Below are positions 13,165 to 59,424 of a stretch of DNA of 64,000 bases, in pieces; positions within the stretch are counted from its first letter, which is position 1; each line of letters starts with the position of its first letter. Below the pieces are notes generated by a model. It saw only the letters and a program-made list of their open reading frames with translations. It did not search any database and was not told where the DNA came from. The DNA comes from Mobula hypostoma (taxonomy: Eukaryota). The DNA is taken from positions 120,902,001-120,966,000 of the forward strand of contig NC_086097.1 of NCBI RefSeq assembly GCF_963921235.1, given 5' to 3'. The position numbers and the translations under genes were made by a program.

Positions 13165-13300
13165 ATCAGTCCTGATGACGGGTCTAGGCCCAAAACGTTT
13201 ACTGTTTATCCCTCTCCATGGATGCCGCCTGACCTGCTGAGTTCCTCCAGCATCTTGTGTGTGCTGCTCTGGATTTCCAGCATCTGCTGACTTCCTCAGG
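13165..13300 (+). mobile_element. Penelope-type terminal repeat with degenerate hammerhead ribozyme motif
   Basis: cagtc-CTGATGA-cgggtctaggccc-AAAA-cgtt-tactg at 13167-13204, followed by the family tail gacctgctgagttcctccagcat...gtgtgtg. Confidence 0.7.
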
Positions 13301-14907
13301 TTTATTACCTGAGGTCATCATGCTTATTCCAGTTTTGCACTGAAGTTCCACTTACCATCTGACAGATCTACTCTCTGCTTTTATTATGAATATGATGTGT
13401 GTGAGATCTTTTGTTATGAATTCCCACTTGTATTTTTGACAAGATCTTAGAAAAATATCAAACTATCTCTGCTCTATTAAAGAACCAGTGACACTGTTGT
13501 GATCCAAATAGTAACCTTAGTCTTATGGCACCAAATAATGCTGTTTGGTTTCCTATCGAGATTGTGAAATAGCTTGTAATAATTGTAACAAAGGTGATAA
13601 CATTCAAACTATGTTGGAACTTAATGTAAAATGAAGACACAACATGCTATAGTTGGAAGTAAAATAAAAAGTAAAAAAAAACACACAAGGGATTATCCTA
13701 CTGGTTTAACCTGCCATTTTCATTTTTATATACATGTGTTTTCAAAGGCCCAGGGAGTATGAAATGTCTACCACATATACCAAAGACAATCTTACTTCCC
13801 CCCCACATACATTATAATTTTATGACTTGTATTGGATTTGTCTGTTTCTGAATATGATGAGCTACATTATTAAAACGAGAGGTTCACAATGAACAGAAGT
13901 GATTGCGCTATAAAAAGACACAACTCCCAGACTTCTAACAGGACCTAAAGAGTTGTAGCATGAATAGTTAATAATTTATAGGGCGCATATCTCTGTACTG
14001 TTCTGTAAAGTATGTACATGCATCATTACAATTGGCAGATCTATTGCATTTATTTAAAAGATAGCTGAAACCTAATTATATAATGAATAATTTCAGTCAT
14101 ATCTAACTACCTCTGGGCGACATTTTACTCAGTTTGAAAGACCTAGGCAAATGCATGTTTTACACTTTAATCCAAGTCCTTAGATATTCCTGCTTTTCAA
14201 GTGTTTATCTTTTCCCTTTCAAATAAAGTTCTATTTTTTAACTTAATTGCCTCCTGTGGCAAAACACATTCTGATCCAATGGTACTTGATTCAACAACCT
14301 TTTTTTTATTTTGAAAGGTTTACTCAGCCCCAGTGTTTAACGGATTAATAGAGTGCTACATTTAGCTCTGAAAAATGTCGGGCCTACACAGCCATTTTTC
14401 CCCATCTCCCTCAACCTCCCATGCCTGTTATCCTCTCTAACCAAACTCCCGACTACCCTCTGCTCAGGAGTTAAAGCCCTGTCCTCAAAGCCTTAAACTA
14501 AAAAAAAATTAAGTCCTATCTGATACAGATATGTATGGGTACCCTCACTATAGGGAGGTTATACTGTGGACGCCCACTCTTCAGGGGCTTTGTAGTAAGG
14601 TTTAGCTGTCATTAACCACGAAGTGGTGAGTTTCTCCACCCTACCAATGAGGAGATACTTCCAGCTAACAAAGTAGTTTAAACACAGTTTATTTTATTTT
14701 TAAAGATACACATTAAAATTTAGACAAATAATTCTGAACACAAAATGTAACACTCACAGATTAATGATTTATTAAAGGTTTCTGAATTACAAAATACAGG
14801 TACAATTGTTATGAACTAAAAGAACACACCAATGATTGCAGATGAACGAGTCATCTGTCATAGAAACCAAATTCTAGTGCTTCTTTCTGTCACCCCGTGT
14901 TCTGTCA

Positions 14908-17300
14908 ATCATGAATGGAAAAATGGCACAAATGTGGCTAACGAGAGAGGTTAAGGCAAAAATAAAAGCAAAAGAAACGGCGTACAAGGAAGCAAAAATT
15001 AGTGGGAAAAATGAAGACTGGAAGACCTTTAAAAACTTACAGAAAGAAACTAAGAAAGTCATTAGGAAAGAAAAGATGAATTATGAAAGGAAGTTGGCGA
15101 TTAACATAAAAAAGGATACTAAGAGTTTTTTTAAATATATGAATAGTAAAAGAGTGACAAGGGTAGATATGGGACCGATTGAAAATGGTACTGGAGTAAT
15201 TATAATGGATAACAAAGAGATGGCGGAGGAACTGAATGAGTATTTTGCATCAGTCTTCACAGTGGAAGACATGAGCAATATACCTGATAGCCAGAGGTAT
15301 CAGGGAATAGAATTAGGTACAGTCAAGATAACTAGAGGGGGGATCTGATTGAAACGTATAAGATCCTAAAGGGATTGGACAGGCTAGATGCAGGAAGAGT
15401 GTTCCCGATGTTGGGGAAGTCCAGAACGAGGGGCCACAGTTTGAGGATAGAGGGGAAGCCTTTTAGGACCGAGATTAGGAAGAACTTCTTCACACAGAGA
15501 GTGGTGAATCTGTGGAATTCTCTGCCACAGGAAACTGTTGAGGCCAGTTCATTGGCTATATTTAAGAGGGAGTTAGATATGGCCCTTGTGGCTACGGGGG
15601 TCAGGGGGTATGGAGGGAAGGCTGGGGCGGGGTTCTGAGTTGGATGATCAGCCATGATCATAATAAATGGCGGTGCAGGCTCGAAGGGCCGAATGGCCTA
15701 CTCCTGAACCTATTTTCTATGTTTCTATGTTTCTATAAGTCTCCCGGCCCAGATGAGGTGCACCCAAGGGTTCTGAAGGAGGTGGCTTTGGAGATTGTGG
15801 AAGCATTGGAAATGATCTTTCAGGAATCAATAGACTCTGGCATGGTTCCGGAGGACTGGAAGGTCGCAAATGTAGTTCCGCTATCTAAGAAAGGAAGGAG
15901 GCAGCAAAAAGAAAATTAGTCTGACATCGATGGTTGGAAAGATATTGGAGTCAATCCTCAAGGACGAGGTTATGAAATACGTCGAGGTACATGACAAGAT
16001 AGGCCAAAGCCAGTATGGTTTCATGAAGGGAAGATCCTGCCTTACCAATTCATTGGAATTTTTTGAGGTAATCTCGAATAAGATTGACAAGGGAGAGGCT
16101 GTGGATGTTGTGTATTTGGGTTTTCAAAAGGCCTTCGATAAGGTACCGCATATGAGGCTGCTTAATAAGATGAGAGCCCATGGAATTATAGGAAAGATAT
16201 TGGAATGGGTGGAGCATTGGCTGATAGGCAGAAAGCAAAGGGTGGGAGTAAAGGGATCCTATTCTGATTGGTTGCCGGTTACTCGTGGTGTTCCGCAGGG
16301 GTCGGTGTTGGGGCCGCTTCTTTTTACGATGTATATCGATGATTTGGATGATGGATTAAATAGTTTTGTGGCCAAGTTTGCGGATGACACCAAGATAGGT
16401 GGAGGAGCAGGAAATGTTGAAGAAACGGAAAGGTTGCAGAGAGACTTAGTCAGTTTAGGAGAGTGGGCAAAGAAATGGCAGATGAGATACAACGTTGACA
16501 AATGTACATTTCGGAAGAAGAAATAATCGGGCAGATTATTATTTAGATGGGGAGAAAATTCAAAAATTGGAAGTGCAAAGGGACTTGGGGGTCCTCGTGC
16601 AGGATACCCTAAAGGTTAACCACCAGGTTGGATTGGCAGTAAGGAAAGCGAATGCTATGTTGGCATTCATTTCAAGAGGAATAGTGTAAGGAGGTGTTGA
16701 TGAGGCTCTATGGGGCATTAGTGAGACCTCATTTGGAATACTGTGCGCAGTTTTGGGCCCCCTATCTTAGAAAGGATATACTGATGTTGGAGAGAGTTCA
16801 GAGAAGATTTACGAGGATGATTCCTGGAATGCAGGGGCTAACATATGAGGAGTGTTTGTCGGCTCTTGGACTGTATTCATTAGATTATAGAAGAATGAGA
16901 GGGGATCTCATAGAAATGTTTCGAATGTTGGAAGGGTTGGACAGTGTAGATGTGGAAAGGCTGTTTCCCTTGGTGGGTGAGTCCAGGACAAGAGGCCATA
17001 GTCTTAGAATTAGAGGGTACCCAGTTAAAACAGAGATGAGGAGAAATTTTTTTAGCCAGAGGGTCGTGGATTTGTGGAATTCGTTGCCACATATGGCTGT
17101 GGAGGCCCAATCATTGAGGGTGTTTAAGGAGGAGATTGACAGGCATCTAATTAGTCAGGGTATCAAGGGATATGGGGAAAAAGCCGGAAATTGGAACTAG
17201 ATGGGTGAATAGTTTAGCTCATGGGGGAGCTGCGGAGCAGACTTGATGGGCCAAATGGCCTACTTCTGCTCCTTTGTCTTGTGATCTTGTGATCTTGTGA
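14908..17300 (+). mobile_element. CR1 LINE, 5'-truncated, same subfamily as 636-3097
   Basis: RT motifs FQKAFDKVPH, GVPQGSVLGPLLF and KFADDTK; (TCTTGTGA)n tail at 17277-17300. Confidence 0.95.
15335..15735 (+). mobile_element. Nested CR1 3' fragment of another subfamily
   Basis: DRLDAGRVFPMLGKSRTRGHSL peptide and a (TTTCTATG)n tail; the host resumes at aagtctcccggccc. Confidence 0.9.
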
Positions 17301-17599
17301 CTCTCTTTGTCATTCCTAACAATCCCCAATGATTCCTAATATTTATACTGTTTTTTTTTCTAGATGGCATCATCTGCACGTGGTGTTTTCCAGATACCTT
17401 TGAGTGATTATAAAGTGGATTCTTGGGGCTATCAGGTGAAGGTGAAAGATGTAGAGCTATCATTTGGCCTCAGTGGGACAGAAGTTCTCAATGATTAATT
17501 TTTTGCCAATGGCCCTCCCAACATTTTGCCTCCCCACCATTCGTAAGGGTGTGATAATACCTTGATTCTATATAAATATCCATTACAGCTGATTTCCAC

Positions 17600-18175
17600 C
17601 ATTCAGCCACAAGAAAACAGCATCTATCATCAATGACCCCCCTATCCAGGTCATGATCTCTTCTCACTGCTGCCATTGGGAATGAGGTACATGAGCCTTA
17701 GATCCCTCACCACCAGGTTCAGTAACAATTATTACACTACAACCATCAGGTTCCTGAACCAGCATGGATAACCTTACTCACTTCAACACTGAACTGATTC
17801 CACAAGCCATCGGCTCACTTTTAAGGTTTCTGCAGTGGATTAGTGGTTTCGATGTCCGTTCAGAATTCTGATGGCAGAGTGGAAGGAGCAGTTTCTGAAT
17901 TATTGAGAGTGTGCCTCAGGCTCCTGTACCTCCTTCCTGGTGATAGCAATGTGTGTGATGGAGGTCCTTAATGATAGATGTTGCCTTTTTGAAGCATCGC
18001 TCCTTGAAGATGTCTTAAATCCTGGTGAGACTAGTGCCCATGATAGAGCTGACTGAGTTCACAACTTTCTGCAGCTTTTTTCAATCCTGTGCAGTGACCC
18101 CCTTTCCCCCTCATACAAGACGGAGATGAAGCCAGTTAGAATGCTCTCCATGGTACATCTGTAGAAAATTGCAAG
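17600..18175. mobile_element. Two Rex1/Babar-like LINE 3' fragments in opposite orientation
   Basis: 17600-17830 (+) and 17850-18175 (-) match the repeats at 23800-24060 and 50260-50600. Confidence 0.65.
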
Positions 18176-19104
18176 AACACATGCTTCTTCAAACTGCCTG
18201 CCTTGCAAAAGTAAAAAAAAACTGACTTGGCAAAACATCCCACAGTTTTCAACTAGACTGTTTCCTTGGGTTGAATTTAAATTAACAGTTAAAAACTAAT
18301 TAAAAGAACTAATCACTTCACCAATTGGGTTTTCCATCTGCTAGAATTGGTTTCCAAGAATCTACGGGACCTCATAAGCTAAGCAATTAGAAGTTTCAAG
18401 CACGATTTCAATATAAACATGTAATAATTTCAGTATAGCAAGTGTGCCTTTATATTTAAATAAATAATTCAGGAGCAAAAACAAACTTGATTTTTCATTT
18501 TGCAATATATGTTTGTAAAGCAGAATCATTATTGCCTAAATAATAAACTGTGAAAAATAAACTATCTGCAACATACAGAAAGTGCTTTGAATGAGGTGCA
18601 GTTATTATTGAGTTGTTAGATTATATAGAATTTTTATTTTAGTTGTTTATGGATGAAGCTAAGTAAATTTAACATCACTCCAGTGAAGTGTTCTAATGAG
18701 TTTCAGTACTTTTGTGTAATCTAATGCTGCTTTTAATGGGAACTGTCTGTTTATCATGTTTGCAGTGTGAAAATAAAACCTTTATTATTATTTCACATCA
18801 GTACTCTGTTTACAAGATGAATCTCCCTGTGTTTGATTTTGCTCTTTGTGCATTACATCACTACAGTTTTTTTCCAGATGACCTATCAAGGATAACAGTA
18901 AAGGAGTCACATGCAAAGTGAATTACATGATGATATAAGCAGTACAATAGAAAGTTCAGGTATCTTGGTAACATAATACATGTATAGATAGTGGAAGTTC
19001 TCAGATGAATAAAAGGCCCCATATTTAAAAGAGTAATATTGAGGATAACATTTTCTTCCTTGCTTTTCTAGGGGCTGACAGCATGAAAATGATACACGTC
19101 ATAA

Positions 19105-20180
19105 GCACAGGAGATTGTGCAGATGGTGGAATTCCAGATCAACACACACAAAATGCTGCAGGAACTCAGCAGAAGGTCAAGCAGCATCTCTGGGAATGAA
19201 TAAACAGTCAACGTTTTGGGATGAGACCCTTCATCAGGGCTGGAAAGATAGGGGGAAGGTACAACAATAAGATGTTTTTGGAGGGGGGGAGTTAGAGGAA
19301 GGAGTACAAGCTAGAAGGTAACAGATGAAGCCAGGTTACTGGGGAAGGGAGTATGGTGAAGATAAACTGAGAACCCGGGATGTGATAGGTGGAAAAGGTG
19401 AAGAGCTGAAGAATAAACACGAGATATTCTGCTGATGCTGGAAGTCCAGATCAACACACACAAAATGCTGGAGGAACCCAGCAGGTCAGGCGACATCTAT
19501 GGAAATGAATAAACAGTCAACATTTCGGGCCGAGACCCTTCAAAAGGAATGGGGGAGATACCAGAATAAAAATGTGGGGAGAGAGGAAGAAGGATAGCTG
19601 GAAGGTAATAGGCGAAGCCAGGTGGGTTAAAGAGATAAAGGGCTAGAGAAAAATAAATCTTTTAAGCAAAGAAACTTTACCATAGGAGAAGGGGATGGAG
19701 GAAGGGACCCAGGGGGAGGTGGTAGGCAGGTGAGAAGAGGTAAGAGACAGAGCGGGGATAGAAGAAGGGAGGGGGAGGAAAACATAGTCATGCCATCAAC
19801 AGCAACACATACAAAATGGTGAAGGAACTCAGCATGCCAGGCAGTATCAATGAAAAAGTGTACACAGTCAACATTTCTGACAGAAAGAAAGAGAAGAAGT
19901 CAGAGTAAGAAGGTAGGAGGAAGGGGATCAAAAAGTACAAGGTGGTAGGTGACATGTGAAACCGGGAGAGGGGGAGGGGAGAAGTGAAGAGCTGGGAAGT
20001 TGATTGATGAAAGAGATAAAGAGCTGGAGAAGGGGGAATCCGATAGGAGAGGCAAGTGGACAATGGGAAAAAGGGAAGGGACACGGGGAAAAGTTGATAG
20101 GTGGGTGAGGAGAGAAGAGGAAAGGGGGAGCCAGAGTGGGGAATGATAAAGAGAGAAGGGGGAAGGGGAAAATTATCTGA
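19105..20180 (-). mobile_element. Tandem array of three Penelope-type terminal-repeat units (~310-350 bp period) with hammerhead remnants
   Basis: Three copies of acacacaaaatgctg..ggaactcagca...aaacagtcaac followed by a purine-rich stretch; anchors at 19205, 19514 and 19865. Confidence 0.75.
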
Positions 20181-20584
20181 AGTTGTAACTAAAATGACAG
20201 CGCAGTTTGGAATCATATCAACTTACAAAAGCTAACTTCAATTGGTTTTAGATAATCATTGTATTTTGTTTCAGAATCATTTGCTTGTATTCTTGACATC
20301 TGTTGGTAAATGTTGACTTACTTTTCCAATATGTTTAATTCGTACTTTTTACTCTTTGAGTTTCTCCTACTTGATGGAATCTGAAAAGTGCCCAAAAGAA
20401 AACATTTCTAAATTTATTTTCAGTTTCTATGAATATGGACAAACACCAGGATTTAGTGCCCATCCTTAATTGTTCTTGAGATGGTAATAACGAGCTGCCT
20501 TCTTGAATTCTGTAGCTCCTTGTGTGAAAGAAGTCTCCCAAAGTTCTGTTTGGTAGGGAGTTGAGGAAGATTTAGACAAAGCAA

Positions 20585-21315
20585 CAGAATGTGGTAGAAC
20601 AGAGGGACCAGGGACAGCAGATCCATAATTCCTTGAAAATGGTGTCACAGGTGAATAGAGTTGTAAAGAGAGCTTTTAGCATATTGGTCTTCATAAATCA
20701 AAGCATTGAGTGCAGGAGTTGGGATATTCAAGATGTATAAAACATGGCTGAAGCTTAATTAGGTGCATTAAGTGCAGTTCTGATCACCTACCTACCGGAA
20801 AGTTATCAATGAGATTGAAAGTGTGCAAGGAAAATTTACAAGAATATTGCTGGGGCTTGAAGACCTAAGTTATAGGGAAAGGTTGAATAAGTTAAGACTT
20901 TATTCCCTGGAGCAAAGGAGAATGAGAGGAGATTTAATAAAGGTATACAAAATTATCAGGGGAAGAGATAGCGTAAATGCAAGCAGGCTTTTTCTACTGA
21001 GGTTGTATGAGACTAGAACTAGAGGTCATGGCTGAAGTGTGAAAAGATAACATGTTTAAGGGGAGCCTGAGGGGGAAATACTTCACTCAGAATGCGGTGT
21101 GAGTGTGAAACGAGCAGCCAGCAGAAGTGGTGGATCCAGGTTTGTTGTCAAAATTTAAGAGAGGTTTGGATTGGTACATGAATGGAAGGGGTATGGAGGG
21201 CTATGGTTCAGTTTGCGTGTCGATGAGGTTATGCAAAATTTTAGTTTAGCACAGACTAGATGGGCCAAAGGGCCTTCTTCTCTGCTGTAGTGCTCTTTAA
21301 CTTTATGATTCTATA
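20585..21315 (+). mobile_element. CR1 3' fragment
   Basis: QGKFTRILLGLEDLSYRERLNKLRLYSLEQRRMRGDLI...TRTRGHG. Confidence 0.9.
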
Positions 21316-21762
21316 ACAGTGACAGTCACTAATGTATGTCTAAATCATGATAGTAGCTAATTTCTAGAATAACCTGAGATAATGATCTTCCCATTGCAAC
21401 GGCATTTGTTCTTAGTGATCAAGGTCTCAAATTTTGGGGGTATGCTGTTCAATAACCCAGCCAAGCCAAATGCAGTGTATGTTGTAGATGCTTTATAGTG
21501 AAGCTACTGAACTGCATTTATACAGATTAAAATTAAAGACCTTACATACTAATTAGGCCTGTATTATGTATATTACATACTTAATATGTGGGACAGAATG
21601 GTAGTGTAGTGGTTAAAGGTTTAAAAAAAAGGGTTCAGTGGTCTATTTATTATCAAAGTAGGTATGCAGTATACATTTCAGAGATTCTTCTTTTCCAGAT
21701 AGCCAGGAAACAAAGAAAACAATGGAAGTACAAGGAAAAACATCAACAACCAACCCGCTCCA

Positions 21763-21763
<1 letters not shown>

Positions 21764-21800
<37 letters not shown>
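21764..21800. repeat. (CA)n microsatellite
   Basis: Direct reading. Confidence 0.98.
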
Positions 21801-21805
<5 letters not shown>

Positions 21806-22104
21806 CACACAAATTGCCCCAGTGCCTCAAACCCTCCCTACAGAAAGACAAATCAGGCAAACTGCAAGAACATCAAACATCAGATCCCAAGCCAAATCAC
21901 ACCAATTTTAAATTGCACAATGCAGCAAGATCAACAAAACCCGCCTCCACCCCTAACACCAACAGAAAAACAAGTCGGACTAACCGTGAGAACACAAAAT
22001 GCCAATCTCCCCTGTGTGAAAAAATCTTACAGATCACACTAAATTAAATCACTCAGTAGGCAATTAGAGCATCAACCCTCCTCCGCAAATACACCCAGAA
22101 AAAC

Positions 22105-22390
22105 TCTACAGCGACAACTGTAAGGTCAGGGTTCAATTCTCACCGCTGTCTGTAAGTGGGTTGGGCATTCTCCCCATGACCACTGGGATTTCCTGTGGGT
22201 GCTCTGGTTTGCTCCCAAATCCAAAGACATACGGGTTAGAGTTAGTGAGCGGTGGGAATTCTATGTTGGTATCAGAAGCCTGGGGACTCTTGGGATCAGC
22301 TCTGCACAATCCCTGCAGATTTGATTTGATGCAAACAGCACATTTCACTGTATGTTTCAATCTACATGTGACAAATAAAGCTAATCTTAC
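22105..22390 (+). mobile_element. V-SINE; its head at ~21590-21615 is separated by a ~500-bp insertion
   Basis: ggttcaattctcaccgctgtctgtaag...ggatttcctgtgggtgctctggtttgctccc, with tail gtgacaaataaagctaatctt. Confidence 0.75.
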
Positions 22391-38851: not shown

Positions 38852-39884
38852 ATCTAAATGAGGATTATAGGGGCACAAACATACAAGTCGATAAATGTTG
38901 CACTGAAATTACCAATTCTATAAAACATGAAACCAAGCACCAAGAATCATCAAACAGAGAAGCATAAATGTTAACGTCTAGTCAGTGGGTCTAATCACAC
39001 TATATAGTCCCAACTTTATCTCCAAAACTTACTTCAATTGTGGATTAATTTCTCAGCAATGGAATCTGAGATAGACAATACCAAGAGGAACTGACAACAC
39101 CAAGAGGACCATCAGGACTGTCCTGATGGAAGGCCATGGCCCAAAATGTCAAGTGTTTATTGCTCTCCAGAAGATGCTGCCTTATCTGCCAAGTTCCTCC
39201 AGCATTTTGCATATGTTACTTTGAATTTCCAGCATCCACAGAAACTCTAGTATTTACAAGGAGGACTATGAATAATTCTTGCAGTAGAAATTGTCGTCAG
39301 TCACACATGCAAAATACCAGATACAGCAGCAGACTTGGGTTATACTCCGCTTCTGAGATTCTGTTCCATTGACCTCAGGGTATTCTTATCCTCAATCTGT
39401 CAATCAGGCTCCTCTTCCCTGATCCTTCGCTGTGTAATGACAATGCCATGACTGCTCCTGTAATTGAATTATGCACGGTTGGCAACAGTAAAGAACAAAA
39501 TTCTGGTTCAGCTCATTTGCCCAGCCATTTTACATGATTTAATTTGAATGCACGCAGGGACACAAGCAAAAGTTCAGTAAAAGGAAATGCAGGAAAACAT
39601 AATTTAAAGGGATTCAACAGTTAAAGCGAATCATCAGAATTGAGAAAAAATAATCTTTGCTATCCATAGGAACCTTGAATTTATTTCAATATTATCTGGT
39701 CATGCAAAGAGGTCTAAGAATCCTAGAGGAAAATAAACTGAAGGAAAAGTCTGAGAAAACAGAGTAGTGATTGAACCTCCCAGCACGTAACTCCTGTCTG
39801 CTGGTTGCTAGTTGCTAGAAAAATGAAATAATCCACATAAATCAGTGCAGAGAAGTGCTTACATGAAATTGGAAATATACTAAT

Positions 39885-40190
39885 AACCACTTTATTAATT
39901 ACCTTCAGTACCTAATAAAGTGGCCACTGAGTGTATGTTCATTGTCTTCTGCTGCTGTAGCCTATCCATTTAAAGGTTCAACATGTTCTGCATTCAGAGA
40001 AACTCTTCCGCGCACCACTGTTGTAATGTCTGGTTATTTGATTTACTGTTGCTTTCTTGTTGGCTTGAACTGATCTGGCATTTCTCCTCTGTACTCTCTC
40101 ATTAACAAAGCATTTTTGCTCACAGAACTGCCACTCACTGGATTTTTTTTTTATCTTTCACACTATTCTCTGTAAACTTTGGAGACTGTT
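39885..40190 (-). mobile_element. Partial Tc1-derived MITE (3' half with terminal hairpin)
   Basis: ccactttattaattaccttcagtacctaataaagtggccactgagtgta followed by the family body; truncated at the Penelope fragment. Confidence 0.8.
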
Positions 40191-40194
40191 AAAC

Positions 40195-40608
40195 TTTTCT
40201 CAGGCTACTAGCCGGGTACAGGTATCGATTTTAACAATCATTTCAATCCCACCTTCATCAGGGATTATACCCAATTAGGTTTCTGCTGTCTCACCTTGTT
40301 CCCAATCAAATTCCAGCTCTTACTTAGAGTGAGACCTTCATCTTTGTTAAAAATTATTTTTTCCTCTGGTTTATTTCAATGGCTTCCTTTACTAGGTAGT
40401 CCCAAAACTATTGGCGAGGTACAGTAGTTTTGTGCCATCAAAGTCAATGCTATGGCCGTTGCGAATGCAGTGTTCCACTACCACCGATTTTTCCAGGTAA
40501 CCCAAATGTATAAATCTCCTGTGCTCTTTGATGTGGGTTTTCAATGTATACATTGGTCCACATTCACAGGGAATCTTGTAAACACCAGCCATCCTGAGTC
40601 CCAGGTCA
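40195..40608 (-). mobile_element. Penelope-like element 3' fragment: GIY-YIG endonuclease remnant plus terminal repeat
   Basis: Peptide GVYKIPCECG...KTHIKEHRR...KSVVVEHCIRNGHSIDF matches the PLE GIY-YIG pattern (the YIG segment is deleted). Downstream CTGATGA...GAAA lies at 40261-40241 on the minus strand. Confidence 0.85.
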
Positions 40609-40609
40609 A

Positions 40610-40960
40610 CAATCAATTCCTTGGTCTTACTGACACTGAGTGCAAGGTTGTTGTTATGACACCACTCAACCAGCTGATCTACTTCTCTCGTGTATGGCTT
40701 CTTGTCACCATCTGAAATTCTGACAATAGTTGTGTCATCGCCAAATTTATAGAGTTGTGCCTAGCCACATAGTTGTGTCAAGCACACATCCTTGAGGTGC
40801 ACCAGTGTTGATTGTCAGTGGGCAGGAGATGTTATTTCTGACCTGCACTGACTGTGGGCTCACGGTGAGGAAGTCGAGGGTCCAGTTGCAGAGGGAGGTA
40901 CAGAGGCCCAGATTTTCGATCTTATTGATTAGTACTGAAGGTATGATGGTGTTGAACACC
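40610..40960 (-). mobile_element. Rex1/Babar-like RT fragment
   Basis: [31 protein letters not shown]...[10 protein letters not shown]. Confidence 0.85.
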
Positions 40961-42670: not shown

Positions 42671-43624
42671 TTCTAAAAGCAGGTTATGGAGCCAGTTGGA
42701 TAATTGGAATCAGACAGGAATTAATAGCAATGAGAAGAAGTAAGATCTACAGGGATATAATACAGAGAAAGTGGAACTATTGGCATTGCTCTTCTGTGAG
42801 TCAATATATATCTAACGGACTGAATGGCTTTGTTTTGTGGCATAGTCAGCGAATAACTTCCTAGCTTCTTGATCTAGCCCCATCATAGCTTGATATAGTT
42901 CAATTAAGCTTCTCCCAGCCTCCACTGTTGCAAAGAAAACAACCCTAGTTCATCCCAATTTACCTCAAAGCTACTATTTTCCTGCACAATCCCAGTACAA
43001 TCACATCCTTCTTGTGATATGATGAGTGCAGCTGTCTACAATGTGTCTGTCCATCACTCTGCAGTCCCTGCACAACTTCTCACGTCTTCTGTTAAAGAAT
43101 AATTTCCTGTATGCCTTGTATTGACCTATTCTTCCACCTACTGCAGTCTGTGCACATAACTCCAAGATTCCTCTATTCCTGCATAATATTCAATATCCTC
43201 TTCATTGTTGTTGCTAATTGCATTAACTCTTACTTCATTGAAGTAAATTCAATTAGACATTTTTCAGAGCTTAACCAAATCATCAACATCCTCCCTAAAT
43301 TAGAGATTTTTATGTGTGCCATCACACATGGGGCTATTTTTGAATCATCCAAAAACTTCTTTATCATCAGCCGTTCAATTTGGACTTTAATAGCTAATGA
43401 ATATTACAGGACGCTATGTTTCCCTATAACCCTTATTTAATTCACATGCCTATCAATTCCCACTGGATTCCAATTATGCAATCAGCTCATCAGCACGTGT
43501 TTGGAATATGGGAAGAAACTGGTGACTCATGAGGAGAATATACAAACTCTACACAGTCAGTACCTATGGTCAAGACTGCATAACAGATGGAGTGTCTCGG
43601 CCCAAAACATCAACTGTTTATTCT

Positions 43625-45355: not shown

Positions 45356-46004
45356 TTTTGTGTATCTTCCTCCTGAACAAGTCAACAGAGTTAACTTATT
45401 TTATTTTATCAAATGGTTTGAGCAGCTGGTGTTTTTCACTCTGGTCTTGATTGTTCTGGATCTCGGCCAGGGTAGCAGGGAATATGATTGAACATCTCCA
45501 AGTTAAGGAGGTCTTAAATCAGCTATGTTCCCTCCTCCAGGATGCCAGCCTGTGAAGTGTAAATCAATGATGCTGGGACTGATGAAGCGTCTTGGCCTGA
45601 AACACTGACTCTTTGTTCCTTTCCGTACATGCTAACTGACCTGCTGAGTACCTCTAGAATTTTGTGTGTGTTTCTGTGAAGTTCAAGACCGTATTAAGTG
45701 AGCATAAAATCTAAAAAGATCCACTAAGCAGAGTAGAAAAATTGGCAGCTGTGCAAAGAGAGACAGCAAAGCCAAAAAGACCCAAGCACTAACGACAGCC
45801 ACCACTTACGCTTACCCATACTACACCAGAATATGTGGGTCTTGGATAGAACTTGACAGCCTCCTGAGGACCCACCAATAGACAACTCCTTAGGAGAACA
45901 TCATACTCAACTCGAGTGATAGCACTGCTGCTCACTCTAGCACAGCAATACTCTAAAGCAAGGCTGCTTTTGTGCTAAAAAAAAAGGTCATGTTAATGCT
46001 ATAT

Positions 46005-49253: not shown

Positions 49254-49267
49254 GTTACCATGGCAAC
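49254..49267. promoter_or_regulatory. Candidate RFX X-box
   Basis: GTTACCATGGCAAC fits GTNRCC-AT-RGYAAC, in non-repeat sequence. Confidence 0.4.
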
Positions 49268-49409
49268 TTCACTTCATTCATCTTAGGCGTGCTTTCCAAG
49301 TGTTTAGATTTCTCCACCGTGGTACTTCTTTGTGAGAGTGTAAGATTCAAGATTTAAGGTTGTTTATTGTTGTTCTTAAGTAAATAAATGTAAAGGAGAA
49401 TGAAGTGAT

Positions 49410-49745
49410 TAGCAACGCATACAAAATGCTGGTGGAACTCAGCAGGTCAGGCAACATCTATGGAAAAGAGTAAACAGTCGACATTTTGGACCGGGACCCT
49501 TCTTCAGCACTGGGAAAGAAGGGGGAAGATGCCTGAATAAAAAGATGGGGGAGGGGAAAGAGGAAGGTGATAGGTGAAGCCAGGTGGGTGGGAAAGCTCA
49601 GAAGCTCGAGGAGACGGAATCTGATAAGAGAGGAGAGTGGACCATAGGGGAAAGGGATTGGAGGAGGTAGCACCCAGGGGGAAGTAATAGGCAGTTGAGA
49701 AGAAGTGAAAGGTCAGAGTGGGGGACAGAAGAAGTGGGGGAAGTT
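49410..49745 (-). mobile_element. Penelope-type terminal repeat with hammerhead remnant
   Basis: Minus strand 49512-49475 reads cagtg-CTGAAGA-agggtcccggtcc-AAAA-tgtc-gactg. Confidence 0.7.
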
Positions 49746-50194
49746 ACTACACTCCAGATCCAACTTAGCATCAATAAACAAAAGCATGAAGAACATAATG
49801 GATAAAAATATAAAATCAATCCTATGAAACAGAACGTGCAAGTAATTGTTGTATGCATACACTGATTGTATGTACTGACAGTGAGGCTAGGTGTATGTAG
49901 TGGTGGTGGGGGTAGTGGGCTGAGTTAATGGGTGGAGGTGTTGATCATCCCGATGGCTTGGGAAAAGAAAGGTGTGCTTCTTCTGAAGTGCTCTTCATTG
50001 GAAGGAGGAATGAAGATGGGTGAATGATGGGGACGTGGGCCGGATGAGTAAAGGAGGAAGGAATCAGTGATTTCCTGGAGAGGAGGAGCACCTCTCTGAC
50101 TTGGAGTTTGTCATGTAACTGCTCAAAGTCTCTGAAAGTATAGCAGCAGCCTTCTGGGACTGCATACTCAGGGATGCAAGATGTGGTAATGCAG

Positions 50195-51080
50195 AATCAG
50201 AAACATGTTTAATATCACTGGCATATGTCATACAATCTGTTGTTCTGTTCATGGGTTCATTGCCCATACAGAAATCTGATGACAGGGGGGAAGAAGCTGT
50301 TCCTGAAAGATTGAGTGTGTGTCTTCAGGCTCCTGTACCTGTACCTTGATGGTAACAATGAGAAGAGGGTATGTCCCGAGTAATGGGGTTCCTTAATGAT
50401 GGATGCCTCTGTTTGAGGCATTGCCTTTTGAAGGTCTCCTGGAAGCTGGGGAGGCTAGTGCCCATGATGGAGCTGACTGAGTTTACGCAACTCTGCAGCT
50501 TTTTTTCAATCTTGTACAATGGTTCCTCTGTACCAGATGATGATGGTGCAGCCAGTAAGAATGCTCCACAGTACAGCTGTAGAAATTTGCGAGTGTCTTT
50601 GGTGACATAACAATTCTCCTCAACTTCTTAATGGATAAATCCTAAGAAATATTGATACCCAGGAACATGAAACTGCTCAGACTTTCCACTTCTCTCAATG
50701 ACAACGAGTGTGTGTTTCTTTGACTTCCCCTTTCTGAAGTCCACTATCAATTCCTTGGTTTTACTGGTGTTGAGTGCAAGGGTGTTGCTGTGACACCACT
50801 CAGCCAGCCTGATCTCCTGTACGACTCCTCATCCCCATCTGAAATTCTGCCATGTGTCATCAGCAACTCTTCTCGATAGTGTTTGAGCTGTGCCTAGCCA
50901 CACAGTCATTGGTGTAGAAGGTGTAGAGCAGTGGGCTAAGCACACATCCCTGCAGTGTGCAGTTGTTGATGGTCAGCGAGGAGGAGGTGCCCAGAGTGTG
51001 ATCACCCAGTGAGGAAGTTGAGGATCCAGTTGTGGAAGGAGGGTTGGAGGCCCAGGTTTTAGAGCTTGTTGATTAGATGC
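50195..51080 (-). mobile_element. Rex1/Babar-like LINE fragment
   Basis: KKLQSCVNSVSSIMGTSLPSFQETFKRQCLK; reverse-collinear with 59870-60880. Confidence 0.8.
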
Positions 51081-52104
51081 AAGGTCGGTGGTAATAAGTG
51101 TGTGCACAATATTGTTGTAGGGTGTATGTGGTGCCCAGGAAGGGGTAGCATCTCTGTTAAATGGGTTTGTCGTGTCAATTAAGAGGTAGTTCTCTCACCT
51201 TTTGACCCCACGGGGCATTTGGTTCCAAGTAGCCGCTTGCATGTGACAGTGGTCACATCCCGTTACGCTGTTTCAACACACTGGCTAAACCTGGTGAGTG
51301 TAGCCAGCAGGTAGGGACATGCCTTCCCAGCATGCAAAGTCCGCTCTGGAGATCCAATGGCCAGAAGGTTGGTTCTGCAACACTTCGTGGACAACAAAGG
51401 GAATGACAAGTCACAGAAATTCATGGTCATCAGTTCTGATGACTACTTGTACCACTGGACCCAGACTTACAAAGTCAAGAGAGTGGAAAATCCCCAGTGC
51501 AACAGTTTTTCCACTTTAAAAGCTCTCAGACAGACTTCTTCATGCAGTTCACATCATGAAACGCACCTATCTAAATGCCATTGTCAGATACGAGTGACAA
51601 CCAAAGAAATCATCAACATTTCTGTGAAAGATATCTCCTTTCCCTGAAGGAAATTCCTAATAATCTGTGTGGTGCTCCTTTCAGACAAAGACCTCAGTAC
51701 TGATGGTTCAAATAAAACTATCATCGATTAAAGCCAGTATACAGCTACCACCACTGGATTTGGATACCCGGAGTAACAGAAAAGAGCATGCATCTCTAGG
51801 CTTGCCATATGGGTATCTCTTGAACTATTACTGAGAGGTTGAAATGTATTGCACTATAGGAGCATTCTGAAAGATCACACAGAGCTGGAGTTCAAAATTA
51901 TGAGTGATTTATTAAAAAATGAAGTGCACCAAGAGATCAGCCAAAGGTGATCTACCTGAGCATGGATTTGGTACAGCTTCTACATTCTCAGTTGATAAGA
52001 ACACCAGTAAAACTACATTTTGGTAACATAATACTAGCCATGGAAAGACTTAACTAAGTAACAGACTAGGTCCTGATTACAGAATAGAGTAGTTATCCGC
52101 AGAT

Positions 52105-52705
52105 CGCAGATCACTCGCGAATTTCTACAGATGTACCATGGAGAGCATTCTGACTGGCTGCATCACTATTTGTAATGGGGGGGGCGGGATTACTGCACAC
52201 AATCAAGGTAAGCCGCAGAAAGTTGTAAAGTCAGTCAGCTCCATCGCAGGCACTAGCCTCCCCAACATCCAGGACATCTTCAAGGAGTAATGCCTCAAAA
52301 AGACGACATCAATCATTAAGGACACCCATCACCCAGGACGTACCCTCCTATCATCATTGCTACCATCAGCGAAGAGGTACAGGAGCCTAAAGGAACATCC
52401 TCAATAAAACATAGAATAGAACATAGAAATCTACAGCACATTACAGGCCCTTCAGCCCACAATGTTGTGCCGACCATGTAACCTACTCTAGAAACTGCCT
52501 AGAATTTTTTCTAAGCTCCATGTACCTATCTAAGAAGCTCTTAAAAGACCCTATTGTATCCACGCAGGTACAGCATCTTCCCCGCCATCAGATTTCTGAA
52601 TCGACATTTAACAAATGAACTCTACCTCACTACTTTTTTGCACAACTTATTAATTTAACTTTTATATATACTTAAAAGACCTAGCAGTAAATTGAATTTT
52701 CTATT
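52105..52705 (+). mobile_element. Rex1/Babar-like 3' fragment with a nested CR1 tail (~52410-52560, minus)
   Basis: ttctacagatgtaccatggagagcattctgactggctgcatcac; nested aacatagaatagaacatagaa tail. Confidence 0.75.
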
Positions 52706-52797
52706 ATCAGAATCAGAATCAGGTTTATAATCACCAGCATGTATGTCGTGAAATTTGTTAATTCAGCAGCAGCAGTTCAATGCAATACATAATATAG

Positions 52798-52798
<1 letters not shown>

Positions 52799-52848
<50 letters not shown>

Positions 52849-52851
52849 TAA

Positions 52852-52882
<31 letters not shown>
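52799..52882. repeat. Compound (TAAG)n(TAAA)n microsatellite
   Basis: Direct reading. Confidence 0.98.
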
Positions 52883-53279
52883 CAGTATGCATATATTGAG
52901 TAGATTAATTAAGGCATCTTTGTTGACTGTACTGACCTTGAAAGCAGTTGTGCTTTTTAACTGTATCAGGCTGCAACAAGAATATTTAATCGTATCCACT
53001 GAGAGTTCTACTATTAGAACAATGGGTGCACGGTAAAACATAATTAGTGAAGTTCCTGAAACTTGGATGTGGTCACTGTTACATTCCATGTCTCTGCTTC
53101 TGTCTGTGTGTCCCTGTTACCACATTAGTGCAATTTACTCCCGCAGCCCTCACTATGCCTTCCCCTACAGCAGAACAAAACTAATTTCTCTTAATTTAAT
53201 AAGTAAGGAGGTACTGAGTTAAAAGAAAAGCATACCAATCCAAAGCATGGAGGCGAAATATGACTTAGACTCCCGTTAT

Positions 53280-53705
53280 TATCCTTGTCTTATGAAGATA
53301 GGTTGGGTGAGCTCGGGCTTTTCTCTTTGGAGAGAAGAAGAATGAGAGGTGACTCGATAAAGGTATACATGGCATCTCCTTATAGGCATAGATCGAGTGG
53401 ACAGCCAGAGACTCTTCGCAAAACAGTGACGGCTAATAGGAGGGGGCATAATTTTAAAATGATTGGAGGAAAGTATAGGGGTGTCAGAAATATGTTCCTT
53501 TACATAGAGTGGTGAGTGGATGGAACACCCTGCCAGGGGTTGTGGTAGAGGCAGATACATTAGGGGCATTGAAGAAACTCTTAGATGAGCAAATGGATGA
53601 TAGAAAAATGGAGGGAAGGGTTAGATCAATTTTAAAATAGGTTAAAAAGTCAGTACAACATCATGGGCCAAAGGGCCTGTACTGCGCTGTACTGTTCTGT
53701 GTTCT
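53280..53705 (+). mobile_element. CR1 3' fragment
   Basis: SYEDRLGELGLFSLERRRMRGD...RGHNFKMIGGKYRG. Confidence 0.9.
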
Positions 53706-54109
53706 ATTACTTGCACAGTAAAATTATTCATGAACAAATATAGCCAAGTTTGTACTAATAATGACGCTGCCTGACTCCCAACCTAGAATTCCTATCTGAC
53801 TATATCTCCCCGCCAAGTATCAGCAGAAATTCTGTTAATATTCCCTTTGGAAGGACACCTCCCAACTGCCCTTATGTCCATGATTGCAGCATGGTTGGAT
53901 GCTTGTGGAGCTGCTTTGGCCACTGTTCAGAATATAATGATATTCTTTCTTAAAGTCAGCTCCTAGCTTTTCTCTTTATTATTGCCACATGGTCAATGTT
54001 CTGTTTTGAAATCTCCCTCCTTGGTTGTACCTTAGTGTAACATCACATTCTTTTTTGCAACAGACTGGGACGAGTAAGCATAGGCAGCAACACTTCCACC
54101 ATGGTTATT

Positions 54110-54830
54110 CCGAACACTGGTGTGTCCTCAGTGCCCATGCTATGCCCTACACACTCAGGGCTGCATGGCCAGATTCCATTCAAGCTCCATCCACAAGTTT
54201 GCAGATCACACTGCTGTTTTCAGACCTTATCTCAAATGAAGAGTCATAGTACAGGAAGGAGGAAACGAGACTAGTGACTCGGTGTGATTACAACAATCTT
54301 TCCCCCAGTGTCAGCAAAACAAAAGAGTGAGTCATTGACTTCAGTAAGTGGTGTGGAGCACATTTTCTACTTACAAGAGGGTTGAGAGCTTTAAATTCCT
54401 AGGAGAGAGCATCACCAATAGCCTGCCCAAGTCCGGCCACATTGACACCATGGTCAAGCAAGCTCACCAATGTCTGAACTTTCTCAGGAGGCTGAAGAAA
54501 CCTGGCATGTCCTCTTCAACACTCACCACAGAAACCATTTTATTTCCATGCATCACGAATTGGTATGGCAACTACTCTGCCCATGTCCACCAGAAGCTGC
54601 AGACACAACTCCACACTTGACAGAAACCAGGCTCCCCTCTAGGTACTCCATCTACACTTCTTACTGCCTCAGTAAAACAAACAACAGAGTTTATGACCCT
54701 CTCCACACCGGAAGTTTTCTCTTCTTCTCTCCCTAAATGTCCATCTGAGTCTACATGCCTGTGATGTTGCTGCAAGTGAGATTTTCATTGTACCTGCACC
54801 TCACCACACTGTGAACATGATCATCAACTT
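54110..54830 (+). mobile_element. Old Rex1/Babar-like fragment
   Basis: RVESFKFLG...HIDTMVKQAHQCLNFLRRLKK...CITNWYGN. Confidence 0.8.
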
Positions 54831-55667
54831 AACTGATCTTTAAAAGAGCATGGACTGAACTTCAGGAATTGAGCAGAATAGTGGTCTGTCCGGTTTTCTC
54901 AGTCGGAGAATTACTTCATGGCCCACCAAATAACTCTGCCCTTGCTGTCCAGTTTACTCATTCTCGAGTTCAAAGTGTTGCAAAATTAAAATCAATTTCA
55001 TTATCCAAATACATATATGTTACTATAAACTACCTTGAGGTATATTTTCTTGTAGGTATTTACAGGAAAATAAAGAAATGCAACATAATTTATGAAAAAT
55101 GTCTATTAGCAGACGGCATGCATTGAAGGAGAGAGGGGATAGGTTCAAAGGGGATGTGAGGGGTGAGTCTTTTACTCAGAGTGGTGAACGCCTGGTATGG
55201 CGGTAGAGGTAAATGCATTAGAGGCTTTTAAGAGATGTTGAGATAGGCACATGAATGTGAGGAAGATGGAGGGATATGAGCATTGTGTAAGTCAGAAGGA
55301 TTAGTTTTTGGGGGGGGGGGTTGATTTATTTTACGGGTGGTTCAGCACAACATTGTAGGTCGAAAAGCCTGTTCCTCTGCTGTACTGTTCTATGTTCTGC
55401 GTCATCTATGTTATGAAAGAACTATATATAACGAGACTGACAAACAACAAAAGTGCAAATTAAGGCAAACAGTGCAAAAAACATACTGAGAGCATGAGTT
55501 GTAGAGTCCTTGAAAGTGAGTGTGGTGACTTTAGAACCAGCTCAGCGTCGAGGTGAGTGAAGTCACCTACGCTGGCTCAGGAGCCTGATGGCTCAGAGTA
55601 ACCCTTGAGAAGTAACATTTATCCTGGTAGTTTCTCTCCTCTGATGACAAAAAAAAATGATAAAGGG

Positions 55668-55980
55668 ATGGCATCCATTAGTCTTGCGAGACCATGGATC
55701 TGCGCCTGGAAAGTCTTCACTCTCCAGGGTGCAGGCCTGGGCAAGATTGTATGGAAGACCGGCAGTTGCCCATGCTGCAAGTCTCCCCTCTCCACGACAT
55801 TGATGTTGTCCAAGGGAAAGGAAGGGCAAGGGCCAATACAGCTTGGCACTGGTGTCATTGCAGAACAATGTGTGGTTACGTGCCTTGCTCAAGGACACAA
55901 CACGCTGCCTCGGCTGGGGCTCAAACTCGTGATCTTCAGGTTGCTAGTTGAATGCCTTAACCACTTGGCCACGTGCCCAC
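55668..55980 (-). mobile_element. tRNA-derived CORE-type SINE
   Basis: Reverse copy of 60933-61205, with A box tggccaagtgg and gtgtccttgagcaaggcac. Confidence 0.85.
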
Positions 55981-56585
55981 ACTATAAAGAGATGACATTA
56001 CAAATAAAGAACAGTATATCCAGTGAGGTGGCAAAGGAATTAGAGTCTGCACAATATGAGGTGTGGGGGAGTAATACTGAAACATTGCCTTGGATAGAAC
56101 AGGCATCTGCCAATGTGAGACATGTAGAAAGCAAAACGCATTAATGGTAACCAGGGAAAGGGCCGATATTACATTTCAATGATGACTGTGCTTCAAAGAA
56201 ATACACATACTCAGCATAAAAACATAGTTTGGCAAATTAATTTGTCAGATCACTATTCAATGGAAAGTTCAAGCCAAATCCTGATGTAAGGAAAAATGCA
56301 TCTCACTGCTCCAAATATGACCAAAACACTTACAAAGCCAACTAACCCAGAAAGATATTACAATTCATAAATGGTTTGTTGAAATAAGGTGTCATCTCTA
56401 TTACAAAGCAAAGGCTGGACTGCTGTAAGAAAAATAATATTTCATTATACAGGGGCAAAAATGTATTTTAATGCACAATAGAAGTCTGCCCTCACGGTTT
56501 GAGGTGGACTCTCAGAAATGAGTTCCTCTAATGGGGATTCTAAAGTGGAGTTAATAAGGATATGATGCTGCTGTGAACATGGTAT

Positions 56586-57090
56586 ACATTCAGTGGCCAC
56601 TTTATTAGGTACACCTGTAAACCTGTTCATTAATGCAAATATCTTATCAGCCAATTATGTGGCAGCAACTCAATGCATAAAATCACACAGGCATAGTCAA
56701 GAGATTTAATTGTTGTTCTGACTAAATAATAGAATGGGGAAGAAATTTGATCTAAGTGACTTCAAGTGCAGAATGATTGTTGGTCCCAGATGGGGTGGTT
56801 TGAGTATCTCAGAAGCTGCTTTTCTCCTGGGATTTTGATGCACAACAGGGAATGATGCAAAAAATAAAAAGCATCCAGTGAGCGGCAGTTCTGTAGGTGA
56901 AAATACCTTGTTACTGAGAGAGGTCCGAGGAGAATGGCCAGACTGGTTCAAACTGACAGGAAGGTGACTGACCCAAATAACCATGCAATACACTAGTGGT
57001 TTGCAGAAGACCATCTCTGAATGCACAACATGTCAAACCTTGAAGCGTAAGGGCTACAGCAGCAGAAGACCATGAGCATGTGCTGAGTGT
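56586..57090 (+). mobile_element. Tc1-derived MITE with terminal hairpin collapsed
   Basis: TA+cattcagtggccactttattaggtac; ends catgagcatgtgctgagtg+TA. Confidence 0.88.
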
Positions 57091-57302
57091 AAGTCACGGA
57101 AGCACAATACAGTAATGATATTAGGAGCCTTTAGTACATATGTCTTTTGAAGCTCTCCCTCCAGATAATCTCAAATGCAATACTGATTTAATCTGTTCAT
57201 AGAAAGCACTCAGTCAAAGTTTAGCTTGTGTACAAATGGTGAAGTTATAAACATGTAATGTTTTGTCAAAATCAAAGTAAATTTTTTATCAAAGTAGGGA
57301 TA

Positions 57303-57873
57303 CACTCAGTGGCCACTTTATTAGGTACCTCTTGTACCTAATAAAATGGTCACTGAGTGTATGTTTGTGGTCTTCTGTTGCTCTATACCATCCACTTTAA
57401 GGTTTGATGGGTTAGACATTAAGAGATGCTGTCTGCACACCACTGCTATCTCACAAGTTTATTTGAGTTACTGTTGCCTTCCTGCCAGCTTGAACCAGTC
57501 AGGCCATTCTCCTCTGACCTCTCCCATTAACAAGGTGATTTTGCTCACAGAACTGCCATGCAGTGGAATTTTTTTGTTTGTTTTATGTGGCATTCTCTGT
57601 AAACTCTGGAGACTGTTGTGTGTGAAAATCCCAGGAGATCAGCAGTTTCTGAGATACTCAAACCACTTCATCTGGCACTAGCAATCATTCCACGGTCAAG
57701 GTCACTTAAATCAAACTTCTTCCCAATTCTGATGCTTGGTCTGAATAACAACTGAACCTCTTGACCTTATCTGCATGTTTTTATACATTGAGTAGCTGCC
57801 TATGATTCACTGGTTAGATATTTGCATTAGCATGCAGGTATACAGGTGTACCTAATAAAATGGCCACTGTGTG
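57303..57873 (-). mobile_element. Tc1-derived MITE, full copy with three TIR copies
   Basis: TA at 57301-2 and 57874-5; TIR copies at 57303-57328, 57334-57359 and 57848-57873. Confidence 0.92.
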
Positions 57874-58344
57874 TATGTCCTCATGTACTCATATCCTGCC
57901 TTGATATTCTTTTTCTTGTGGGTATTTACAGGAAAATAAAGAAATACAATGCTTTGTAAAAGGGAAAAGAAATTATATTTAATATAATTTCATATCAAAA
58001 TAACTATAATGGCTACTAAGAACATTACATAGCAGAGCCTGCAAGTACCTCAGGACTTCTTCAAAGCAAAATAAGAGTAAAGAGCACTTGGGAATTCCAT
58101 TTTGTATCAGGACATCCATTCATATGACTGTTACCTACACATTTACAAAAAGTACATTGGTATATTTTGTGTACGTCATTTGAGAAATTTTGATTGTTTC
58201 GCTGAGAAATGCATTATAAGTCTGCACACATCAATTTGGAATTCTATTCTCTTAGACTGGTTTGCCGTTCTCAGCTGAAAGATCCAGCAAGGTGGGACAA
58301 TGTACTCCTTGCCCTAGTTCTGTGTATGCAGTGATATTTTATTT

Positions 58345-58560
58345 TACTTACTTAAGCCCATCACCCCTACTGGGGCATAGGCCATCAACAGCAGCTCACC
58401 AGAGTCCACGGTTCTGGGCCAGTCTTTCAAGTTGTCCCCAGGAGCAGCACATCGAAGATCCTTCCTCTTCCAGGGATAAGGCATTTTGGATTTCAAAGGG
58501 GTGGGCTTGCTAGCCCCATGCCCAATTCTCCCCCTTTGCAACTAACTTAGGGCCGGCCAT
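58345..58560 (-). mobile_element. RTE-clade LINE 3' end or RTE-derived short element with (TAAG)n tail
   Basis: Minus-strand translation WGQLERLAQNRGLW*AAVDGLCPSRGDGLK* followed by taagtaagtaa, a typical RTE C-terminus. Confidence 0.75.
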
Positions 58561-58659
58561 GGAAATCCCTCATGTAGTTGCAGTATTTGCTAGCATCTGC
58601 TGAATGGAGGAAATTGATACCAGGACCTATTGGATCACTGGCCTGTTTCAAAGGGAGTC

Positions 58660-58970
58660 TAGTAGCGTAGAAGTTAGCGCATCCCTTTGCAGTGCTAGCG
58701 ATCACTAATCCGGTTTCAAATTCCACTGCTGTCTGTAAGTAGTATGTACGTTCTCCCCATGACCATGTGGGTTTCCTTTCGGTGCTCTGGTTTCCTTGCA
58801 CATCCCAAAGGTGTAACGTTAGGGTTTGGGTTTGTAAAATCTGGGTATGCTATGTTGGCAGCCCAACTGTAGGCTGCCCAGGACAATCCTCACTGATTTG
58901 ATTTCATGCAAACCGATGCATTTCACTGTACGATTCAATGTGCATGTGGCAAACAAAGCTAATCTTTACA
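58660..58970 (+). mobile_element. V-SINE (HE1-like)
   Basis: Head gtagcgtag...ggtttcaaattcc; V-domain gtgggtttcctttcggtgctctggtttcc. Confidence 0.8.
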
Positions 58971-59424
58971 TCACTCTGAGACCAGGCTCCAGACCACAAA
59001 CTCAGGGATACAAGAAATTCTGCAGATACTGGAAATCTTGAGCAAAATACTAGAGGAACCCAGCAAGACAGACAGCATCTATGGAGGCAAAAAGCAGTCA
59101 ATATTTAGGACTGAGATCCTTCATCAGAACTGACTTGTTGGACTTTATGACGCTGTCTGACTGCCGAGTTCCTCCTGTTTTTTGTGCGCCACACAAACTC
59201 TCAGAAAAGTTTTGGAACTTGTGTACCTTAGCCCTCTCCCAACGTTAAATCCCTTCCACTCAATGTTTGTCAGATCTGAAGATGATGATGCCCAGGAAGT
59301 TCTTCAGAAGTCAAGAATGAGGCGCATATGTTACAGATGAAGCCAGTTTATTGGAGGTTCATCACGGTACAGGTCAGATAGGGTCAGCATGCATCAGCAA
59401 GCAAGATAAAATAAAGTAGCTTAG

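Follow-up and report, generated by a model that had tools for sequence, protein, structure and literature searches.

The 64,000-nucleotide (nt) stretch of the Mobula hypostoma genome analysed here (contig NC_086097.1, positions 120,902,001 to 120,966,000; hereafter the window) contains a dispersed family of short repeats sharing a 38-nt motif that resembles a hammerhead ribozyme. We read these repeats, with a probability of about 0.82, as mutated, 5'-truncated copies of a very abundant tail repeat (pseudo-long terminal repeat, pseudo-LTR) of a Penelope-like element (PLE), whose ancestor carried a minimal type I hammerhead and whose copies have decayed neutrally. An earlier note on this DNA had pieced such a ribozyme together from eight motif copies and proposed that decay at methylated cytosine-guanine (CpG) dinucleotides preferentially destroyed the catalytic core. 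Its reconstruction fits the published consensus once the CpG sites are restored, but differs from the plain majority of the copies, and the CpG sites of the motif are worn no faster than those of other repeats in the window.

The restored motif and the published hammerhead consensus

In every sequence feature, the CpG-restored motif corresponds to the minimal type I hammerhead of PLEs (PMC4209133). The matches comprise the CUGANGA box with one extra base behind it, the G10.1-C11.1 pair, GAAA, the palindromic 15.2-16.2 pair, U16.1, H17 and a U-rich 5' flank. CUGANGA and the extra base represent the majority of window copies at every column, while GAAA, the palindromic pair, U16.1 and H17 are present in the restored motif and never occur jointly with the remaining motif in any window copy. 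In the restored motif, helix II is opened by G10.1-C11.1 and consists of 4 base pairs (bp) and a 4-nt loop (pair probabilities 0.90-1.00), and a 5-bp helix I closes the type I topology (0.93-0.94). The restored letters concern four dinucleotides, namely in loop II and at C11.1-G12, C15.2-G16.2 and C17-G1.1, at each of which CG, TG and CA are all found among the copies.

Contigs from four public sequencing runs, X1, X5, X10 and X22 (that the last is RNA is a guess only), were aligned to the reference copy at 49380-49800, giving 67,719, 61,730, 66,700 and 6,204 aligned contigs, respectively, which are not to be taken as copy numbers. At the non-CpG positions 49508, 49494 and 49490, where the reference copy has letters of its own, the restored state accounts for 86%, 93% and 87% of the depth in X1. 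Besides, we observed loose ends at 49486 in 823, 791, 808 and 114 contigs (in the same order of runs) in which an intact 5' arm is followed by CTGATGA, by stem II and by G12, the G of GAAA. Aligned depth declines overall toward the 5' end of the reference copy.

Several observations weigh against this interpretation. Taken at face value, the letters that predominate among the 11 copies give AAAA instead of GAAA and T at both 15.2 and 17, and the restored states are in the minority in the window (G12 in 3 of 9 aligned copies, C15.2 and C17 each in 4 of 10); because of this majority, the reconstruction needs the CpG argument, which holds at the four dinucleotides named above. Among the aligned contigs, too, G12 makes up 30%, 31%, 32% and 22% of the depth and C15.2 35%, 35%, 34% and 42% (X1, X5, X10, X22), minority shares from an alignment biased toward the reference that are probably undercounts, since contigs with restored letters are clipped beside the private changes of the reference. 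The loose-end majority at 49464 is AAAA in all four runs (agreement 0.53-0.58), and neither C17>T nor G16.2>A has an entry among the contig-table rows listed, though both are common in the window; the contig table is therefore not a simple mirror of the window. As G12 and C15.2 are in the minority in window and contigs alike, and C17 in the window too, part of the apparent decay may have been inherited from variant master elements. The folding results do not help either: the energy of the restored monomer is unremarkable (z of about -1.3 against 1000 shuffles), the core pairs internally in its best fold (-12.7 versus -10.5 kcal/mol), and the double-hammerhead fold of the restored dimer reaches -19.9 as compared to -33.7 kcal/mol for the best fold. 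This is weak evidence because such models leave the catalytic core unscored, and the modelled energies would be in line, weakly, with a low ribozyme activity. An Rfam scan of the window yielded no hammerhead family among 12 matches at E<=5, and none at the gathering threshold. Likewise, a tblastn search of the window with 150 Poseidon-like proteins found no reverse transcriptase or endonuclease belonging to the motif family, its only match being the fragment at 40350-40640 discussed below, and no frame with reverse transcriptase and GIY-YIG domains adjoins any of the 11 copies in the window. There is only an N-F-R-stop trace at 20184-20173, possibly the last trace of the element's reading frame, which we take to resemble the end of vertebrate Penelope endonucleases.

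Organisation of the repeat family

Inspection of the sequence confirmed all eight 38-nt motifs of the earlier note at their places (Table 1), with 45579 being the first base of CTGATGA in a motif that starts at ~45574. When the window was searched with nhmmer, a profile seeded with seven copies returned 11 matches at E<=1e-7 as well as a weaker piece (E=0.0014), while the best match in the reversed window, which served as control, had E=1.7. Four of the 11 matches were not in the seed, namely the copy at 43583 and three that are new with respect to the earlier note: 19881-19794 (-), 7754-7675 (-) and 7751-7845 (+). The dispersed motif is thus real, but it is not free-standing and sits toward the 3' end of a repeat that can reach ~430 nt. 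A shared module of ~110 nt lies downstream of it, and in four long copies a pyrimidine-rich stretch of 170-290 nt precedes it (pyrimidine share 0.72 and 0.85 in the two long copies measured). Copies are 5'-truncated, being nested with a common 3' module, and occur both head-to-tail, as in a trimer at 19098-20184 (-) whose units are 309 and 351 nt apart, and inverted, as in two insertions with inverted partners at 7675-7845 and 59001-59186. Partial tandems, 5' truncation and inverted partners belong to the anatomy of PLEs (PMC8557442), and the family displays this pseudo-LTR-type combination within the window. No convincing target-site duplication was found at eight insertions inspected.

Table 1. 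Members of the hammerhead-bearing repeat family and remnants of a second Penelope-like family in the window
Feature	Coordinates	Strand	38-nt motif	Details
Inverted-pair arm	7675..7754	-		Begins within stem II
Inverted-pair other arm	7751..7845	+		Begins at or <=3 nt past predicted cleavage site
Short copy from 5' arm of stem I	13167..13303	+	13167-13204	Relic with G12>A, C17>T, G1.1>T; downstream module
Trimer unit 3	19098..19413	-	19242-19205	Relic with G12>A, C17>T, damaged stem II
Trimer middle unit	19412..19797	-	19551-19514	Relic with deletion through CTGA; GAAA retained
Trimer unit 1, longest	19794..20184	-		Hammerhead 5' half deleted; opens with N-F-R-stop codons (20184-20173)
Short copy from stem I	39118..39260	+	39118-39155	Relic with A9>G, G12>A
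Second family, degenerate hammerhead-like remnant	40230..40265	-		CTGATGA and GAAA 10 nt apart; stem II and U16.1 damaged
Second family, broken GIY-YIG-like endonuclease fragment, Penelope/Poseidon-type	40350..40640	-		HMMER search, tblastn
Fragment of ~40 nt	43583..43624	+	~43583-43616	Relic with U4>A, A9>G, G12>A
Short copy from CTGATGA	45579..45699	+	~45574-45611	Stem I 5' arm absent; GAAA retained; U16.1>C
Long solo copy, ~235 nt pyrimidine-rich upstream part	49392..49745	-	49512-49475	Relic with G12>A, C15.2>T, G-G mismatch at stem I inner pair; reference copy for the contig alignment
Short copy from stem I	59001..59132	-	59132-59095	Relic with G12>T, otherwise descriptor-compatible
Inverted downstream-module piece	59149..59186	+		Directly 5' of the 59132 copy

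In 5 of the 11 copies (13167, 39118, 43583, 45579 and 59132), homology ends within ~8 nt of the outer 5' edge of the motif, not at the predicted cut site, a clustering with p of about 1e-6 under a rough uniform model, to be read with the reservation that a preponderance of short copies is to be expected anyway and that the slot was picked post hoc. In front of the 39118 copy, 10 nt of its own start recur in inverted form, giving a perfect inverted repeat across the 5' junction (39110-39130) with A9>G in both arms. The start of the arm at 7751 coincides with a 3-nt overlap with the arm at 7675..7754, and this overlap alone could explain where it starts.

Damage to the catalytic core

A generic minimal-hammerhead descriptor, run on both strands, bore out the claim that no copy is intact: it found no perfect match and one match that departs from the core at one position (59127, G12>T), as compared to none in each of six shuffles. 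The earlier note had ascribed the reading AAAA instead of GAAA to CpG decay. This accounts for 5 of 9 aligned copies, in which G12 is replaced by A (13167, 19242, 39118, 43583 and 49512; two of these have non-CpG core changes as well), and in 13167, 19242 and 49512 no core change other than G12>A is clearly lethal. The other four are broken otherwise, namely by a G12>T transversion (59132), by deletions in the 5' core (19551 and 19881), and by U16.1>C together with a missing stem I arm (45579). G12A is a standard inactivating mutation (PMC13481778). What did not hold up is the inclusion of "cgtt" among the inactivated states, as the published consensus permits U at 17 and many natural examples end in C-G-U-U (PMC4209133). 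Because C17>U is compatible with the N-U-H rule and T at 15.2 still gives a U-G pair, the damage had been overcalled: the set of inactivating states was too wide, and G12>A is the only clearly lethal CpG change.

Within the motif, 34 of 78 CpG cells were changed (29 of them C>T or G>A), as against 26 of 247 other cells, such that the CpG columns hold 24% of the cells and 57% of the substitutions (34/60); the excess is significant against non-CpG C/G cells (Fisher p=4e-7). CpG columns changed about four times as often, which agrees with a preferential destruction of the core, but the rate is that of other repeats in the window: in pairwise comparisons, CpG transitions had a share of 45/81 (56%) in the motif and of 356/675 (53%) in the other repeats (106 alignments, counting CG facing TG, CA or TA; the pairs are non-independent). 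Since CpG decay of the motif equals that of its surroundings, the ribozyme is not targeted, host-directed inactivation was ruled out on the same ground, and the "preferential" destruction is a matter of CpG placement only. The only peculiarity of the motif is its density of CpGs, with four in 38 nt, three of which touch the core (C11.1-G12, C15.2-G16.2 and C17-G1.1), as against none to one in the downstream module.

Non-CpG cells of the motif show no better conservation than the downstream module (26/247 versus 110/802 changed, p=0.23). From the downstream tally we excluded the ambiguous column pair 67-68 and, as artefacts, four sites with a TG majority and one CA that an automatic rule had called CpG. 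Nor are the non-CpG cells of the core alone significantly better kept (6/84 changed, p=0.12), which ruled out selection on the window copies; judged by their sequence, these look neutral. A GpC control within the motif (28/63) was left unused, being confounded by its overlap with CpG columns. In the literature on CpG decay in connection with Penelope hammerhead retrotransposons, nothing beyond plant-centred work was found among the matches listed.

Proposed history and alternative readings

From these data, we propose that a master element would be transcribed and then copied into the genome from its 3' end, a route that may have left the short, tandem and inverted copies. In tandem transcripts, and by analogy with known elements, two motifs could pair via the palindromic ACGU to form stem III and be cut after GUC. 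Minimal hammerheads of PLEs do not cleave as monomers and cleave weakly as dimers (PMC4209133; PMC6765202), and the ancestral hammerhead is likewise predicted to have cut weakly, only as a dimer or with the help of protein. Inserted copies would then decay without selection, and ordinary CpG deamination, to which the TG/CA pattern points, would turn G12 into A in about half of them, because four CpGs lie within 38 nt and three touch the core. On the sequence evidence, the loss of G12 is passive wear and not targeted inactivation.

It could be objected that the hammerhead likeness is itself an artefact of choosing letters from decayed copies, given that the majority consensus misfits the core, the restored monomer has a folding energy no more striking than z of about -1.3 against 1000 shuffles, and Rfam gives no hammerhead match. 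However, CG, TG and CA stand together at all four restored sites, G12 and an undamaged 5' half are found in independent contigs, the match to the published consensus is position by position, and the descriptor found nothing in six shuffles even when one mismatch was allowed; we consider this objection scarcely credible, and rejected a chance likeness to the hammerhead. A more serious variant accepts the hammerhead and holds that G12>A and other variants were inherited from masters with a dead ribozyme rather than acquired after insertion. In the window, A predominates at G12 (5/9) and the contigs point the same way (G 22-32%), as does the AAAA majority of the loose ends at 49464 in four runs (agreement 0.53-0.58); moreover, hammerhead mutants of the Anolis element still inserted in vitro (PMC11167929). 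Yet TG, CA and intact CG are all present at C11.1-G12, the excess of CA over TG (5 versus 1) comes from very few copies, and the share of G in the contigs is lowered by the clipping of G12 contigs at 49486 beside the private changes of the reference. Taken as a full alternative, inheritance from dead masters strikes us as improbable.

Another possibility is that the family is a non-autonomous unit of 150-430 nt, SINE-like (short interspersed nuclear element) or retrozyme-like, which was derived from a Penelope pseudo-LTR and amplified independently of it, possibly via tandem or circular RNA. All 11 copies lack a coding part, 5 of 11 start at the 5' edge of the motif, and the trimer spacings of 309 and 351 nt are near the mean retrozyme length of 363 bp in the only chondrichthyan sampled (bioRxiv 10.64898/2026.07.22.740005). 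On the other hand, the trimer units are unequal in length and 5' start and lack a complete hammerhead, the longest begins with a possible end of a reading frame, and contig depth drops toward the 5' end as it would for a truncated longer element. In the preprint, an active non-LTR retrozyme has at least two tandem units with a complete type I hammerhead; all three cores of the trimer are broken, and it fails this definition because its units are unequal and none has a complete hammerhead. We thus regard an independent retrozyme-like unit as unlikely. Slightly less so, though still doubtful, is the idea that the hammerhead serves as a folded boundary signal and not as a cutter, with short insertions starting at its outer 5' edge and masters carrying G12>A having kept spreading. 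If true, this would be in vivo evidence of Penelope movement without ribozyme cleavage.

A second Penelope-like family and other repeats in the window

The window also holds remnants of a second family on the minus strand (Table 1). Its endonuclease fragment at 40350-40640 gave no match in Pfam, NCBIfam and word-index protein searches, but a full HMMER search did match it. Its GIY-YIG-like assignment has an Atlas score of 0.91 with 176 features shared and the family present on 23% of members, and a reverse-transcriptase domain is also present in 3 of 9 longer relatives scanned. The hammerhead-like remnant at 40230-40265 follows ~90 nt after the fragment on the same strand, which is the standard layout but no proof of where the first family came from. 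Penelope protein motifs disclosed no second coding remnant in the window. Besides, the exact motif pattern was absent from viral, metagenome and prokaryote contigs, where vertebrate repeats are unexpected.

With 41% GC, an observed/expected CpG ratio of 0.28, abundant reverse-transcriptase fragments of the long interspersed nuclear element (LINE) type and a Tc1-like transposase, the window presents the picture of a methylated vertebrate genome. The transposase, of the Tc1/mariner type (Sleeping Beauty-like), lies at 62047-63045 (-) in an open frame of 332 amino acids with Pfam HTH_Tnp_Tc3_2 and HTH_SB. Young LINE-type copies occur as two pairs whose members face in opposite directions and are 87-98% alike (634-2646/14907-17297 and 6010-6872/29242-30103). 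A 67-nt near-palindromic repeat at 57298-57364, found also at 39873-39938, matches Rfam mir-9256 with 51.5 bits (+) and 49.7 bits (-) at a gathering score of 80 and is probably a hairpin from a small DNA transposon. Further, there is a tandem array with a period of 35-36 nt and several open frames at 3662-3908, and a weak tRNA-like match at 60942-61010 (+), with 27.2 bits at a gathering score of 29, which is possibly the head of a SINE.

Relation to known elements and implications

The closest relatives are the minimal hammerheads of metazoan Penelope-like pseudo-LTRs (Cervera and de la Pena 2014, PMC4209133), with which the family shares the core, G10.1-C11.1, the loop-less palindromic C15.2-G16.2 and the short helix I. 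These, likewise, are mostly single, dispersed and variable copies, with thousands per genome in coelacanth and Xenopus. The family described here has a helix II of 4 bp with a loop of 4 nt, near the lower limit of published lengths, and differs in being known from its tail repeat, with its reading frame unseen. Supplement file 2 of that paper yielded no shark, skate or chimaera names. A minimal hammerhead is also found in the pseudo-LTR of Poseidon, a vertebrate PLE from Anolis carolinensis (PAc; Frangieh et al. 2024, PMC11167929). There, cleavage was assayed, needs the element's protein and is dispensable for insertion in vitro, whereas our evidence is confined to sequence; transcript ends at its cut site were not seen by RNA sequencing. 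Non-LTR retrozymes (Li, Clavereau and Pollet 2026, bioRxiv 10.64898/2026.07.22.740005), too, have type I hammerheads, in tandem units of ~300-360 nt derived from PLE pseudo-LTRs, and hammerhead retrozymes were reported there in one chondrichthyan; unlike these, the trimer consists of unequal, 5'-truncated units devoid of a complete hammerhead. With Rfam hammerhead families (e.g. Hammerhead_1) the restored motif shares the letters of the catalytic core, but the window copies are damaged, lack a normal stem III and have no match at E<=5. Our literature search found no paper on Penelope in stingrays and, among the matches listed, no occurrence of a hammerhead ribozyme in sharks.

In summary, the finding is real but ordinary, as this kind of element has been described since 2014, and the overlap of a CpG with the catalytic G12 is a correct side note, with no sign of a deliberate use by the host. 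The work adds one very abundant vertebrate family to the class described in 2014. With tens of thousands of contigs per run in three of four runs, this family offers a natural data set on hammerhead cleavage in Penelope transposition, which could be used to ask whether cleavage-dead variants form amplified lineages and where 5' ends lie relative to the cut site.

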